Virus record (IMG/VR): IMGVR_UViG_2693429557_000012
Source of the DNA: a virus
Taxonomy: Duplodnaviria > Heunggongvirae > Uroviricota > Caudoviricetes
DNA length: 6,465 nucleotides
Strand: one strand, 5' to 3'
In this document: piece after piece, positions 3,013-6,465 of the stretch
Layout: each line of letters begins with the position of its first letter
Position numbering within the stretch: position 1 is the first letter of the stretch
The notes under the pieces: generated by a model
What the model was told of the DNA's origin: nothing
The model's database searches: none
The model's input: the letters and a program-made list of their open reading frames with translations, nothing else
Made by a program: the position numbers and the translations under genes

Positions 3013-3576
3013 ATGAATCGCACGTCTATTGAAAAACTCCCGTCACTTACGCATAACCATCTTCCTGTCATGACAACAGAGCTGCTGGCTGATTTGTACG
3101 GAACAGAGCGCCAGCGTTTGACAAACAATTTCAATCGAAACAAAGAACGGTTTATAGAAGGTAAACATTTTTTCCTGATAGAAGGTGATGCGTTACGAGA
3201 GTTGAAGAACGAAAACTCTTTAAGAGTTTCTGTGAAAATTGCCCGTAACGTTCGCTCCCTCATCCTCTGGACAGAACGTGGCGCAGCCCGTCACGCCAAA
3301 ATGCTCGAAACCGATCAGGCGTGGGAAGTGTTCGAAAAACTGGAAGACTGTTATTTCAACCAGAAACAGCCACCAGCGGCACAAAACACATCTATCGAAA
3401 ATGATGGATGCGCATTACTGAGCCACTTCGATAAACACGGTCAGGTTGAGTTCACGGAAAAGGTACCCGCCGATGCGATGGTATGTACTCTGGAACGGTT
3501 TAAATTTTATCTGGAGCAACACGGGTGGATCGTTGCCCGTAAAGAGCAACTGGTGGAGCGGTTGATGCGGTTTTAA
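3013..3576 (+). CDS. ORF6N-like (KilA-N-related) phage protein, often annotated as antirepressor/regulatory protein
   Basis: LPVMTTELLADLYGTERQRLTNNFNRNKERFIEGKHFFLIEGDALRELK...LWTERGAARHAKMLETDQAWEVFEKL matches the ORF6N domain pattern as recalled. Start ATG 3013 has AAGGA 7 nt upstream. The ORF-track extension back to 2815 has no support and would overlap the promoter and leader hairpin. Confidence 0.65.
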   Translation: MNRTSIEKLPSLTHNHLPVMTTELLADLYGTERQRLTNNFNRNKERFIEGKHFFLIEGDALRELKNENSLRVSVKIARNVRSLILWTERGAARHAKMLETDQAWEVFEKLEDCYFNQKQPPAAQNTSIENDGCALLSHFDKHGQVEFTEKVPADAMVCTLERFKFYLEQHGWIVARKEQLVERLMRF

Positions 3577-3651
3577 AAATTTTTTCCGAAAACTTTACGA
3601 TCGTAAAAAGTTGAATATCCTGTTAAGAGTGGTTACTACGCCACACAGCTT

Positions 3652-3678
3652 AAACCCGCCGATGAGCGGGTTTTTTTA
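3652..3678 (+). terminator. Intrinsic terminator downstream of the ORF6N-like gene
   Basis: AAACCCGC/GCGGGTTT stem with 6 nt loop, followed by a run of seven T residues. Confidence 0.65.
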
Positions 3679-3726
3679 TACCTGAAAAACGGCACAGGAC
3701 GTTAAACGTGCTGGTGGTCAGATGAG

Positions 3727-3755
3727 TTTGCAGATGTGATGACATATGGTTATTA
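3727..3755 (+). promoter_or_regulatory. Candidate promoter for the tRNA array
   Basis: TTTGCA (3727-3732), 17 bp spacer, TTATTA (3750-3755), placing the start about 3 nt before tRNA-Ile. Confidence 0.3.
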
Positions 3756-3765
3756 TTCTGCCTCC

Positions 3766-3842
3766 GGCCCTTTAGCTCAGTTGGTCAGAGCGAGCGACTC
3801 ATAATCGCCAGGTCGCTGGTTCAAGTCCAGCAAGGGCCACCA
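3766..3842 (+). tRNA. ileZ: tRNA-Ile (anticodon CAU, ileX/ileZ-like, reads AUA)
   Basis: Hand-folded cloverleaf: acceptor GGCCCTT/AAGGGCC, anticodon loop CTCATAA, T arm GCTGG-TTCAAGT-CCAGC, encoded CCA. Near-identical to E. coli ileX as recalled. C4-G69 and C5-G68 fit Ile2 rather than Met identity. Confidence 0.85.
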
Positions 3843-3843
3843 A

Positions 3844-3920
3844 CCACCACTAGCTCATCCGGATAGAGCATCAACCTTCTAAGTTGACGGTGCGAGGTTC
3901 GAGTCCTCGGTGGTGGGCCA
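3844..3920 (+). tRNA. argN: tRNA-Arg (anticodon UCU, reads AGA)
   Basis: Cloverleaf with anticodon loop CTTCTAA, T arm CGAGG-TTCGAGT-CCTCG, acceptor CCACCAC/GTGGTGG with an unusual C1:G72 pair, encoded CCA. Begins 1 nt after the previous tRNA. Confidence 0.8.
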
Positions 3921-3922
3921 GC

Positions 3923-3998
<76 letters not shown>

Positions 3999-4001
3999 TA
4001 T

Positions 4002-4076
<75 letters not shown>

Positions 4077-4256
4077 GTCAGAGTCTTTCAGTCTGCGATG
4101 ATGGGAAATCCCGGAGTGACTGAAAGACGTTTAAGTTATGAATGATCGCCTTTTTTTGCAAAATTGCTGTGCAGAAATACTAACCTTCGGGCGTGCGATC
4201 ATTCATAAGCACTCTGCTTTTATTCCGATTAACTGTGGGTGGTTTGTTGGATAGAG

Positions 4257-4817
4257 TGTGAGGTGTACTGGCAATAGCGGACACTACCATTTGTTCTTTT
4301 TTTAAGCAGCCATCTGATGATATTTTTCCCTGAAGGCTGCCGGGGAGATATTCCCCAGACGAGAGTGACGACGCTGACGATTGTAGAAAATCTCAATGTA
4401 TTCCCGTATTACTGAGATGGCTTCATCCCGGTTATTAAAACGATAGTGGCTCAGGCTCTCATTTTTCAGCGTTCCCCAGAAGCTTTCCATCGGAGCGTTG
4501 TCGTAACAGTTACCTTTACGCGACATTGATGTTTTCAGACCAGACTGCTCCTGTATGACCCGGTAATCGTATGCGCAGTACTGTGAACCTCGATCAGAGT
4601 GGTGGATTAGCCCGGCAGGTGGGCGCTGGCTCCTGAGCGCCATAAACAGGGCTTTACCTGTCAGCTCTTTTGTCATGCGCTCTCCCATGGCGTAGCCGAC
4701 AATTTCGCACGTATAAACATCTTTGATGCCAGCGAGGTACAACCATCCCTCCTGTGTGGCAACATACGTCAGGTCCGCCACCCAGACCTGATTTGGTGCT
4801 GTAGGAGCGAACGTCAT
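4257..4817 (-). mobile_element. 5'-truncated IS3-family insertion sequence (3' ~560 bp only: C-terminal OrfB plus terminal inverted repeat)
   Basis: Encodes the DDE integrase core of an IS3-family OrfB (VADLTY, HHSDRGSQY, NAPMESFWGTLK). Beyond the stop at 4302, 4257-4290 (TGTGAGGTGTACTGGCAATAGCGGACAC) resembles IS3-group terminal repeats that begin with TG. OrfA, the OrfB N-terminus and the other end are absent. Confidence 0.75.
4302..4817 (-). pseudogene. IS3-family transposase OrfB, C-terminal catalytic fragment (N-terminally truncated)
   Basis: 171 aa ORF carrying the DDE triad but missing roughly the first 110 residues and the upstream orfA. The apparent ATG at 4815-4817 falls in the junction microhomology and is probably not a genuine start. 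Confidence 0.75.
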
Positions 4818-5224
4818 TTTTCCTGATAGAAGGTGATGCGTTACGAGAGTTGAAGAACGAAAACTCTTTAAGAGTTTCTGTGAAAATTGCCCGTAACGTT
4901 CGCTCCCTCATCCTCTGGACAGAACGTGGCGCAGCCCGTCACGCCAAAATGCTCGAAACCGATCAGGCGTGGGAAGTGTTCGAAAAACTGGAAGACTGTT
5001 ATTTCAACCAGAAACAGCCACCAGCGGCACAAAACACATCTATCGAAAATGATGGATGCGCATTACTGAGCCACTTCGATAAACACGGTCAGGTTGAGTT
5101 CACGGAAAAGGTACCCGCCGATGCGATGGTATGTACTCTGGAACGGTTTAAATTTTATCTGGAGCAACACGGGTGGATCGTTGCCCGTAAAGAGCAACTG
5201 GTGGAGCGGTTGATGCGGTTTTAA
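4817..5224 (+). pseudogene. 5'-truncated second copy of the ORF6N-like gene (C-terminal ~135 codons, no native start or promoter)
   Basis: In-frame identical copy of 3169-3576. The ORF track calls it from a TTG at 4850; its N-terminal ORF6N half is missing. Confidence 0.7.
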
Positions 5225-5299
5225 AAATTTTTTCCGAAAACTTTACGATCGTAAAAAGTTGAATATCCTGTTAAGAGTGGTTACTACGCCACACAGCTT

Positions 5300-5326
5300 A
5301 AACCCGCCGATGAGCGGGTTTTTTTA
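5300..5326 (+). terminator. Intrinsic terminator (repeat copy of 3652-3678)
   Basis: Identical duplicated sequence: AAACCCGC/GCGGGTTT stem plus seven T residues. Confidence 0.6.
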
Positions 5327-5413
5327 TACCTGAAAAACGGCACAGGACGTTAAACGTGCTGGTGGTCAGATGAGTTTGCAGATGTGATGACATATGGTTA
5401 TTATTCTGCCTCC

Positions 5414-5490
5414 GGCCCTTTAGCTCAGTTGGTCAGAGCGAGCGACTCATAATCGCCAGGTCGCTGGTTCAAGTCCAGCAAGGGCCACCA
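5414..5490 (+). tRNA. ileZ: tRNA-Ile (anticodon CAU), second copy
   Basis: Identical to 3766-3842 within the direct repeat. Confidence 0.85.
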
Positions 5491-5491
5491 A

Positions 5492-5568
5492 CCACCACTA
5501 GCTCATCCGGATAGAGCATCAACCTTCTAAGTTGACGGTGCGAGGTTCGAGTCCTCGGTGGTGGGCCA
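5492..5568 (+). tRNA. argN: tRNA-Arg (anticodon UCU), second copy
   Basis: Identical to 3844-3920 within the direct repeat. Confidence 0.8.
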
Positions 5569-5570
5569 GC

Positions 5571-5646
<76 letters not shown>

Positions 5647-5649
5647 TAT

Positions 5650-5724
<75 letters not shown>

Positions 5725-6337
5725 GCGAGATTTGAGACGAAGGTTGTTATTTGCACTGACACAATATTGTGTGGGAATGTCTGACTCCTTACCATCTCCT
5801 GTTCTGTGATGTTGTTTTGTTGCAGTTCCAGTGCTCTTTTTTCAGCACCAGAATGGTGCATTGTCGGTCAGGTTACGTAGTGAACCTCTGGCAGGGGACT
5901 GATAATGCATCATTCTGGTGTTGTAAATATCTCTTCGGACAACTTACAAAATATTCTAAGCAAACCCCGGGAACACACTCTTAACTGCCTTGGCTGGCGG
6001 TTTTTTGTACAGTGCTCGGTATGTGTGAGCTGGAAATCAGATTTTGCATGGACTGGAATCATGCTGTTATTTAGGGGCGAAGAACTGGCTTTTTCTTCCG
6101 CCTTCTCACCAGTAACGATTAGAAAAATAATGAAATGCCCCCCTCCGGGGAGGAGGACCGTAGAAAAAAGGACCCGCCAGCAAAAACATTGGGGATGAAC
6201 AGCTTTCGCTACTCAGATTGCTGGCGGGTAAAGTTCCTCATGAATTAAGAATGCTACGCGATCTTTTTTAATGGAAATGAAAATTATTGTCAATTAGTCG
6301 TGCGTGTTTTTTCATACAATATTGGTAAAGGTGATTC

Positions 6338-6373
6338 AGGCCATCAGAGTTTTGCTGATGGCCTTTTTTCTTT
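6338..6373 (+). terminator. Strong intrinsic terminator immediately upstream of the holin gene
   Basis: 10 bp stem AGGCCATCAG/CTGATGGCCT with 7 nt loop AGTTTTG, followed by TTTTTTCTTT. Confidence 0.7.
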
Positions 6374-6424
6374 CCGATAGCACAGGTCTGTCGGGGGGCG
6401 GGATATGTATCAGATGGAAAAAAT

Positions 6425-6465
6425 ATCAACAGGCATTGCCTACGGCACCTCCGCCGGCAGTGCCG
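6425..6465 (+). CDS. Holin (lambdoid S / DLP12 EssD-like), N-terminal 13 codons only; continues beyond the window
   Basis: MYQMEKISTGIAYGTSAGSA resembles the N-terminus MYQMEKITTGVSYTTSAVG of EssD-type holins as recalled. It sits where the lysis cassette is expected, after Q, the tRNAs and a terminator. Confidence 0.5.
   Translation, partial: MNRHCLRHLRRQC

Follow-up and report, generated by a model that had tools for sequence, protein, structure and literature searches.

Two conserved non-coding modules between the tRNA genes and the holin gene of a lambdoid prophage

The interval between the tRNA array and the holin gene

The window analysed in this study is a stretch of 6,465 nucleotides from a virus of the Caudoviricetes (IMG/VR record IMGVR_UViG_2693429557_000012). 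An array of four tRNA genes on the + strand (5414–5724), identified through ARAGORN and Rfam tRNA matches as CAU (Met/Ile2), Arg-UCU, Thr-UGU and Gly-UCC, is the second copy within the window. A promoter scan placed a promoter-like element (TTTGCA-18-TATTAT; 5375–5404, + strand) 9 nt before the first tRNA, and the spacing between this −35/−10 pair and the first tRNA is constant across four further prophage settings with differing flanks. The window ends within a gene on the + strand (6405–6465, starting MYQMEKISTGIAYGTSAGSA…), which was identified as the start of a class II holin gene through alignment of holin starts and through the annotation of CFSAN029787, where a class II holin family protein is found at the corresponding place.

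The DNA between these genes (5725–6404) is non-coding, holding neither a gene nor a gene remnant, and is a mosaic of two conserved modules. Module A (5725 to ~6010, + strand) forms the 3′ trailer of a prophage tRNA operon that is self-contained. Module B (6022–6404) is a holin-leader module that immediately precedes class II holin genes and also occurs, as a remnant, beside iss. In prophages with different holins, TerB or LT-II cargo, tRNA-Gly is likewise followed by module A, and module B precedes the class II holin in prophages without module A, as well as persisting in iss remnants. As each occurs without the other in further prophages, the two modules assort independently among lambdoid prophages. 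The reading favoured here, with moderate confidence, is that of a tRNA-operon trailer followed by a holin leader that carries terminators and a candidate small RNA (sRNA) on the minus strand.

The sequence-only reading of this DNA had found no convincing protein gene in the interval, and this was upheld, with no Pfam or PHROG match to ORF 5905–6198 or to any other ORF of at least 30 aa. Its suggestion of structured non-coding RNA was also borne out, through a conserved hairpin and several terminator-like dyads, but its option of a decayed cargo gene was not, as no ORF of at least 30 aa matches a protein family and the two modules are intact in many other prophages. The dyads exceed what is expected by chance, as evidenced by seven terminator-like sites in 5300–6465 compared with 1.3 ± 1.1 in shuffled sequences, and by folding z-scores of −3.0 for 5725–6012 on the + strand and of −3.4 (6160–6262) and −4.0 (6120–6262) on the minus strand. 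Two features were absent from that first reading, namely the two-module mosaic and a U-tract on the minus strand beside a 12-bp dyad in module B.

None of the elements in the interval matches an Rfam family, taking membership as a covariance-model score at or above the family gathering threshold. Scans of the whole window (E ≤ 1) and of the target interval (E ≤ 10) returned only spurious microRNA-precursor matches to the long hairpin of module A and weak generic matches to sRNA 3′ ends at 6278–6374, and the models of STnc100 (RF02076), AgvB (RF02702), AsxR (RF02703) and Esr41 (RF02676) had no match in 5700–6420, even at E ≤ 10.

Module A and its long hairpin

The promoter-like element at 5375–5404, the four tRNAs, the trailer and an intrinsic terminator at 5983–6008 would make up a single tRNA transcription unit. 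The 5′ part of the trailer (5725–5827, + strand), delimited in an alignment of 14 trailers, holds a small hairpin, ACACAATATTGTGT, at 5759–5772, in place of which a second trailer type has a different hairpin (CGTA...TACG). CAGTGCT, which is nearly invariant among relatives, and a U-run stand directly before the long hairpin. This hairpin is joined to the terminator by an A/U-rich linker (5939–5982, + strand; …UAAGCAAACCCCGGGAACAC…), defined in the same way, whose motif TAAGCAAAaCCtGGaAAtAC is conserved in seven trailers of the same tail type. The terminator itself (AACUGCC-loop-GGCGGUU, then a U-run; + strand), called by the terminator scan, is conserved with an 8-U tail in the relatives L011, L012 and L156–L159, and the U·G pair that it has in the window is acceptable on the + strand only. 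Its right arm is the first copy of GCTGGCGG, whose recurrence at 5993 had been remarked upon and is present at 5993–6000. The recurrence is probably a coincidence, as it joins two modules that are found separately and as chance alone would, by our own estimate, yield about three shared 8-mers in 612 bp.

The long hairpin comprises ~100 nt and 32 bp (5828–5938, + strand) with core arms at 5839–5869 and 5897–5927, and was derived with RNAalifold from 16 relatives. A 16-nt inverted repeat with one mismatch, reported previously at 5846–5861 and 5905–5920, is present and forms the core of this longer repeat, the arms of which are 31 nt long and 84% complementary; the mismatch is a G·U pair in the + strand RNA. 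The consensus energy is −36.1 kcal/mol on the + strand vs. −4.3 kcal/mol on the minus strand, and the window obtains 82.5 bits with model R1 on the + strand vs. 38.7 bits on the minus strand. Across the 16 sequences, 28 + 4 base pairs are conserved, many of them G·U, and 97.7% of cells are paired, compared with 34–58% in slid-register controls. Double changes were found in six pairs (13 such cells), a number reached by 3 of 500 shuffles, and the observed pairing or covariation score was reached by none of 500, although the covariation rests on closely related sequences with an effective number of 1.4. The long hairpin is maintained as a + strand RNA structure. It is also inherited together with tRNA-Gly(UCC), lying 120–150 nt after that gene in all 101 IMG/VR contigs with a resolvable upstream tRNA, and was found in 339 of 5,426 complete E. 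coli genomes, including in a prophage of DH5alpha. A divergent copy in L017, which has no tRNA upstream and for which the hairpin is not the minimum-energy fold, looks decayed.

When homologous regions were compared for covariance, as the sequence-only reading had proposed, the long hairpin was supported and the small hairpins proposed within its segment were not. The overlapping and mutually exclusive small hairpins proposed for 5831–5859 do exist as repeats, GTGCT (5831–5835) with AGCAC (5844–5848) and GCACCA (5845–5850) with TGGTGC (5854–5859), but their alternative folding finds no comparative support: among relatives CAGTGCT is constant whereas the partner segment differs, and compensating changes are absent.

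The long hairpin may be an element of RNA processing or stability, most likely a double-stranded site of the RNase III type or a structure protecting the 3′ end. Its targets would be the tRNA precursor in lysogens and the long Q-antiterminated late transcript, in which the lysis mRNA would have to be severed from the tRNAs. The freed RNA of ~180 nt, comprising hairpin, linker and terminator, could then serve as a trailer-derived regulatory RNA.

The only sizeable ORF singled out beforehand (5905–6198, 97 aa) is present, with AGGGGA 6 nt before its ATG, and it had been proposed that the region might encode a small regulatory protein. This, or a similar role for another short ORF, or descent from a lost cargo gene, is considered highly improbable here, even though the upstream AGGGGA resembles a ribosome-binding site and some pipelines annotate hypothetical proteins in related loci (P0001–P0004; L157 1992–2252; L009 3166–3357). 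The apparent Shine–Dalgarno sequence and the ATG both sit inside the conserved long hairpin, and the ORF then runs through the terminator U-run and across the recombination junction between modules A and B. In 14 relatives the homologous ATG opens ORFs of 15–97 aa with unrelated tails, conservation ending with the hairpin arm, and a near-identical relative is frameshifted within the ORF at the C-run 6138–6143. A search against 5.8 billion proteins matched only six hypotheticals, all from the same locus, of which four are near-identical Shigella flexneri proteins and two others have a query coverage of 46%. Relatives have annotated ORFs in other frames, and these ORFs are not kept in the window. 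Neither the frame nor the product of ORF 5905–6198 is thus conserved in relatives, as would be expected of a protein-coding gene.

Module B and a candidate minus-strand RNA

Module B was found in ~1,370 of 5,426 E. coli genomes and on 579 plasmids. Identity is 87% upstream of the holin in a first group of loci (L009, L010, L078–80, L084, L085), and ~85% in the CFT073 island (L002) and beside iss on ColV plasmids (L008). A collection of 142 holin-anchored loci from GTDB genomes and IMG/VR returned only the same three sequence types, and because only three or four such types exist, module B provides neither covariation nor proof of strand. Variation is nevertheless uneven along it. The core (6160–6240) is more conserved than the rest of the module, with 10 of 81 vs. 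85 of 274 variable columns (Fisher p = 6e-4), and is retained even in iss remnants with neither Q nor holin visible in the vicinity. The least conserved part is 6086–6159, with only 49% invariant columns.

Stem-loops followed by U-tracts, which are predicted to terminate transcription, are located at 5983–6008 and 6338–6370 on the + strand and at 6158–6137 and 6229–6163 on the minus strand, the last of these derived from the fold and the others from the scan. The terminator at 6338–6370 (AGGCCAUCAG-loop-CUGAUGGCCU, then UUUUUUC; 10 bp, 6 GC) lies ~35 nt before the holin start codon and is identical in the intact prophage variants, whilst in the remnants it is kept via G·U pairs, on the + strand only. 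It would keep polymerase that lacks Q modification, for instance when started at the tRNA promoter, out of the lysis genes, whereas Q-modified polymerase would read through it. For a + strand sRNA ending at this terminator, no acceptable −35/−10 pair was found by eye or by scan; a promoter-like site at 6103–6131 was considered and rejected, its spacing and hexamers not being conserved in the EC24 and CFT073 types. The GC-rich hairpin at 6137–6158, found by terminator scan and fold, spans the polymorphic C-run 6138–6143. It is terminator-like on the minus strand in the window (−15.5 kcal/mol, vs. −9.2 kcal/mol on the + strand), but as the favoured strand flips among module B variants its strand is ambiguous.

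The core of module B contains the perfect 12-nt inverted repeat that had been pointed out earlier, ACCCGCCAGCAA at 6172–6183 and TTGCTGGCGGGT at 6218–6229. In the fold, this is the outer stem of a compound hairpin (6163–6229) that reads as an intrinsic terminator on the minus strand. The 12 bp surround an 8-bp inner stem, which includes two G·U pairs and carries a GAAA loop, and CCUUUUUUC comes after the outer stem. The U6 tract starts 2 nt after the 12-bp stem on the minus strand. The inner stem forms on that strand in five of five variant sequences, with substitutions falling in loops, and the flanking A-run of the + strand, which is the U-run of the minus strand, is invariant. The inner stem depends on its G·U pairs, which, like the U-tract, exist on the minus strand only.

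These dyads could instead act on the + strand, as a 5′ leader structure of the late lysis mRNA affecting, for example, mRNA stability, holin translation or lysis timing, in which case a minus-strand transcript would be irrelevant. The outer stem has much the same stability on either strand (−27.4 vs. −28.8 kcal/mol), the one stem change of the ColV variant is a G·U wobble on the + strand and a mismatch on the minus strand, and a small hairpin at 6046–6064 keeps its pairing on the + strand only, in the EC24 type. Module B also always travels with a class II holin. The asymmetry of the A-run and U-run and the G·U pairs of the inner stem, however, fit the minus strand, the core is best conserved even in the iss remnants with no visible Q or holin nearby, and the compound hairpin ends ~175 nt before the holin start codon, away from its ribosome-binding site. 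A role as + strand leader seems rather improbable.

Upstream of the compound hairpin, on the minus strand, a promoter-like element was read from the sequence at 6265–6293, consisting of TTGACA (6293–6288), a 17-nt spacer and TAAAAA (6270–6265). It was not called by the consensus scan, the −10 TAAAAA being without the final T. Both hexamers and their spacing are identical in all module B variants despite substitutions in the spacer, with 86% invariant columns. Together with the compound hairpin, this element would constitute a small gene directed against the late operon, for a terminator-ended candidate sRNA of ~96 nt (6163–6258, minus strand), the transcription of which we infer from these two signals. 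The predicted RNA has an unpaired 5′ part of ~30 nt followed by the compound terminator hairpin (MFE −31.6 kcal/mol, z = −3.4), and its putative 5′ seed part (6241–6264) is less conserved than its terminator, with 62% invariant columns.

That 5′ variability and the weak −10 would also suit a module without any gene, in which the 12-bp dyad and its U-tract (6229→6163), and possibly 6158–6137, are merely minus-strand terminators. These would stop antisense transcription, arising from minus-strand genes that are expressed in the lysogen and lie within or past the lysis cassette, short of the tRNA and Q region, and the TTGACA would be fortuitous. Minus-strand genes do lie downstream in related prophages (L009 3910–4182 and iss at 5311–5604; L010 4099–4359), and in the ColV remnant iss points toward module B. 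This explanation is credible but unlikely: the −35 and −10 hexamers and the 17-nt distance between them do not vary although the spacer mutates, the hairpin loops are as conserved as the stems, beyond the needs of a plain terminator, and the documented sRNAs PasA and PasC hold the same slot in the same orientation.

The candidate sRNA was also compared with published RNAs. The dyad sequence was not found in the supplements of Tree et al. (2014), and a search of the literature on sRNAs of iss or ColV plasmids yielded nothing relevant to module B. PapR, an sRNA of uropathogenic E. coli, was considered because module B of CFT073 lies ~2 kb from papI, but its ends as taken from published cloning primers (CGGGCTGAAGTCCGG… and …TCTCCCAGCGCGGGCTTTTTTT) were unmatched in the window by reading. 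Module B was likewise rejected as a homolog of PasA–D: in blastn searches (word size 7) of the window against the pasA, pasC, pasD1 and pasB loci of E2348/69 and the extracted PasA and PasC sequences only the holin starts aligned, with no match in the target interval. Only three of the loci collected here carry pasA or pasC genes.

Relation to known prophage RNA elements

The lambdoid Q-to-holin interval is the site of Shiga toxin and other cargo, and this slot also holds sRNAs that rewire host regulation, such as AgvB, AsxR, Esr41, STnc100/PasD and PasA/PasC. The window adds to it two unannotated conserved RNA elements, one a hairpin inherited with a phage tRNA gene and the other, within module B, transferred to ColV plasmids and uropathogenic islands alongside the serum-resistance gene iss. 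That both are functional unnamed regulatory RNAs, a trailer non-coding RNA and a minus-strand sRNA of ~96 nt acting in trans, is a tentative and somewhat doubtful proposal. If true, the hairpin trailer would be a phage non-coding RNA, and could be an RNase III-gated processing switch or a trailer-derived sponge, tying the lysogen-expressed tRNA unit to late and lysis expression. The ~96-nt RNA would then be a new sRNA that has spread together with iss across ColV virulence plasmids and ExPEC islands and is present in about a quarter of complete E. coli genomes, controlling host or virulence genes in trans in the manner of Pas, AgvB and AsxR; if expressed, the module B element would rank among the most widely distributed accessory sRNAs still without a name in pathogenic E. 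coli. Should neither element act in trans, the locus would still be a clean example of prophage terminators shielding lysogen-expressed units from lethal lysis genes.

In the lambda tR′ paradigm, Q-modified RNA polymerase reads through the terminators of lambdoid late operons. The terminators at 5983–6008 and 6338–6370 are similarly intrinsic, on the late-operon strand and between Q and the lysis genes, but are far downstream of PR′/tR′, the PR′ short-RNA region of the window being where Rfam calls isrK (~2573–2649). At their positions they would insulate the embedded lysogen-expressed units. STnc100/PasD (RF02076) is a + strand non-coding RNA of the same Q-to-holin interval. EC24-type prophages have a full STnc100 (114.5 bits) 115 nt upstream of module B, and a weak match (24 bits) is given by the tail behind the same tRNA-Gly hairpin in the DH5alpha prophage, whereas the window has no STnc100 match and its post-hairpin tail is of the short terminator type.

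RNase III processing hairpins are found in polycistronic phage transcripts, in the T7 early region, the lambda N-leader and sib. The module A hairpin resembles these as a long imperfect double-stranded RNA of more than two helical turns between functionally different transcript segments, its predicted structure offering the ~20 bp or more of near-continuous double strand that characterizes RNase III substrates, but it sits in a short terminator-bounded unit and not only in a long mRNA. A further parallel is 3′ETS-leuZ, a regulatory RNA reportedly excised from the 3′ trailer of the glyW-cysT-leuZ tRNA operon in E. coli. Both lie between the last tRNA and an intrinsic terminator, here between the end of tRNA-Gly at 5724 and the terminator at 5983–6008 with the structure on the + strand, belong to the tRNA transcript, and could be freed when the tRNA 3′ ends are processed. 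The trailer in the window differs in being prophage-borne, ~285 nt long and dominated by a 32-bp hairpin.

The closest likeness to the candidate sRNA is that of PasA and PasC of EPEC E2348/69, sRNAs encoded on the minus strand just ahead of class II holins (Pearl Mizrahi et al., 2021, PMC8550237; Zhu, Shabalina & Storz, 2026, bioRxiv 10.64898/2026.05.13.724894). These are small intergenic genes directly before the class II holin and opposite in strand to the late operon, as the candidate would be: PasA lies on the minus strand ~240–290 bp before the holin in L004, and the candidate runs 6258→6163 on the minus strand, with the holin starting at 6405 on the + strand. Further shared features are a TTGACA-type −35 upstream, a terminator stem containing GCCAGC followed by a U-tail (in the window the 12-bp stem and then CCUUUUUUC on the minus strand, invariant among variants), and a further terminator hairpin, on the + strand, that separates the sRNA gene from the holin. 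The terminator in the window is distinguished by its compound form, a 12 + 8-bp hairpin with a long conserved internal loop, and the Pas genes are almost never on plasmids, whereas module B occurs with iss on ColV plasmids.

Composition and coding potential of the interval

The interval between the tRNA array and the lysis genes (about 5726–6337) is very probably a non-coding mosaic, with a tRNA-trailer hairpin on the + strand and flanking terminators. Sequence 99.3–100% identical to it is present in nine E. coli chromosomes, that of EIEC CFSAN029787 among them, and Shigella flexneri loci also match; RefSeq holds no annotation between tRNA-Gly and the holin in the near-identical chromosomes, CFSAN029787 included. 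Across the 5,426 complete E. coli genomes searched, matches to the interval break at about 6010–6022, separating a tRNA-operon trailer (module A, 5725–~6010) from a holin-leader module (module B, 6022–6404). All of the dyads described in the sequence-only reading were found at the positions given there, and hairpins exceed chance, with seven terminator-like sites in a terminator-like scan vs 1.3 ± 1.1 in shuffles, and folding z-scores of −3 to −4.

That reading had offered a structured ncRNA, a small regulatory protein or a decayed cargo gene. No ORF of at least 30 aa on either strand matched Pfam or PHROGs. The 97-aa ORF (5905–6198) has an apparent SD and ATG, yet these lie within a conserved RNA stem, and among 5.8 billion proteins it matched only six hypotheticals, four from Shigella flexneri and two unnamed (46% query coverage). 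It is frameshifted in a close relative at the C-run 6138–6143, and it runs across the module junction and a terminator U-run. The homologous ATG in 14 relatives opens ORFs of 15–97 aa, which have in common only the first eight residues, encoded by a hairpin arm. On this evidence, a small protein and a decayed cargo gene are both rejected, and the structured ncRNA is supported. The C6 run also differs in length among relatives that are >98% identical (C4 in locus L134), an indel that shifts the frame of annotated hypothetical proteins as well.

The window covers the late-regulatory part of a lambdoid prophage, opening with a DnaB-type helicase, a RusA-like gene and Q (2125–2532). Directly 3′ of Q is a block of RNAs recognised by Rfam above gathering score (2560–2975): c4-a1b1 (2560–2612), isrK (2573–2649, 77.5 bits), whose end is the terminator that follows Q, C4 antisense RNA (2675–2758, 71 bits) and sRNA-Xcc1 (2892–2975, 77 bits). 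Together with the putative ant-like ORF that follows, this block may be a c4/ant immunity cassette of the P1 type, situated within the PR′ leader. The first copy of the four-tRNA array lies at 3766–4076. The 3′ part of ant and the four tRNAs are perfectly duplicated over 909 bp in direct orientation (3169–4077 and 4817–5725), on either side of a minus-strand ORF of 171 aa (4302–4817), a putative IS3-family transposase fragment. This arrangement suggests an IS-associated rearrangement, or the junction of two prophages. The class II holin gene starts at 6405, 3′ of the interval. Window-identical copies in S. flexneri SFBU1023 and E. coli ECMA0423 (2501–2590 in both loci) match the holin only over residues 1–30, and the gene may be truncated there; the window itself stops within the holin start.

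The tRNA trailer

Module A occurs elsewhere at 66–78% identity, always behind the final tRNA gene in a prophage array, and the genes 3′ of it vary by prophage (other holin types, TerB, an LT-IIb toxin phage). Strain DH5alpha has one copy, in a prophage that we take to be phi80. Across 14 aligned trailers, a variable spacer of ~100 nt, with a small hairpin whose sequence is unlike between trailer types, is followed by an invariant CAGTGCT plus U-run ahead of a long hairpin. One of two tails follows: a short A/U-rich linker with an intrinsic terminator, the type seen in the window (terminator at 5983–6008), or a longer, structured tail.

Several lines of evidence support the long hairpin as a + strand RNA structure. 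With RNAalifold on 16 sequences, the + strand forms 32 pairs at −36.1 kcal/mol vs 17 pairs at −4.3 kcal/mol on the minus strand, a gap explained by the many G·U pairs among those conserved. Paired cells amount to 97.7%, vs 34–58% in slid registers, both sides change in six pairs, and none of 500 shuffles matched the observed pairing or the covariation score. Of the hairpins first proposed here, the 16-bp inverted repeat forms the core of this structure; the two short "mutually exclusive" ones lack conservation. That the long hairpin serves as a processing or stability element is about as likely as not.

A pattern scan of IMG/VR yielded at least 120 contigs, with a tRNA-Gly(tcc) gene 120–150 nt upstream in all 101 that have an identifiable upstream tRNA; of the other 19, some are plainly unrelated and five have too little upstream DNA. 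A promoter-like TTGCA-N17/18-TATTAT stands at a fixed distance ahead of the first tRNA, even where the surrounding sequence is unrelated. On this basis, the tRNA array, trailer and terminator look like an autonomous unit.

Behind the first tRNA-array copy lies, in place of module A, a different dyad-rich segment of 182 bp (4077–4258), with 94–100% identity to sequence that precedes class II holins by ~110 nt in numerous other prophages (L013, L014, L058 and other comparison loci); in the window the transposase-like fragment cuts it short. At least two interchangeable versions of the spacer between tRNA and holin thus exist.

The holin-leader module

Module B is found at 87% identity immediately before class II holins in prophages without module A, and as a remnant fused to Rz1-iss (~85% identity) on ColV-type plasmids and the CFT073 island, in about 1,370 genomes and 579 plasmids altogether. 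On ColV plasmids (L008:4001–5026) and the CFT073 island (L002:5001–5344), the stretch of the module between 6022 and the + strand terminator is joined straight to Rz1-iss, with holin and lysozyme deleted and IS elements on the left; the iss locus thus takes a holin-leader element along.

The core around the perfect 12-bp dyad (6160–6240, 81 nt) has 10 variable columns across four lineages, vs 85 of 274 in the rest of the module (Fisher p = 6e-4), and its substitutions are confined to loops. Several features favour the minus strand. Read in that direction, the dyad folds around an inner stem of 8 bp (two G·U pairs, GAAA loop), and CCUUUUUUC comes after it; the + strand has no U-tract and loses the inner stem. 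TTGACA-17 nt-TAAAAA, invariant in all variants, lies ~35 nt upstream of the dyad on the minus strand. From these features, module B may encode a minus-strand sRNA of ~96 nt (6258→6163), which we regard as possible rather than probable. Substantial caveats count against it: the candidate −10 (TAAAAA) is without the final T, and just 62% of columns in the 5′ part are invariant. No covariation was found in module B among the four lineages, and the adjoining hairpin (6137–6158) switches its favoured strand between variants. The + strand intrinsic terminator at 6338–6370 is identical in intact prophages and maintained by wobble pairs on the + strand in the remnants.

Comparison with known RNAs

No family in Rfam 15 matches either element, and PasA–D have no sequence similarity to the window. 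PapR was ruled out from its published primer sequences. PasA and PasC of prophages PP2 and PP5 of EPEC E2348/69 do share the layout of the module B candidate, being minus-strand sRNAs with a GCCAGC stem and U-tail just upstream of the holin, with a separate + strand terminator hairpin in between, as in the window. In PP2, a second PasC-like unit (TTGACA … GCCAGCG-loop-CGCTGGC, then U7; L004:2250–2420, minus) follows closely behind PasA on that strand, an apparent tandem pair of sRNAs.

In relatives, this interval is occupied by STnc100, an sRNA with structure in common with PasD; the Rfam search gave no STnc100 match in the window. EC24-type prophages have a full copy (RF02076, 114.5 bits) 115 nt ahead of module B (L009:2698–2886). 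In the DH5alpha prophage (L155:2590–2786), the longer tail that follows the same tRNA-Gly hairpin is a weak match (24.4 bits) with the CGGGAGGCACCCG motif in common, which hints at a divergent STnc100/PasD relative.

Both elements are new, unnamed additions to known kinds of prophage non-coding elements. The closest functional analogues of module A are tRNA-trailer RNAs such as 3′ETS-leuZ and phage RNase III hairpins; those of the minus-strand unit of module B are PasA/PasC, and those of the two + strand terminators are Q-overridden late-operon terminators.
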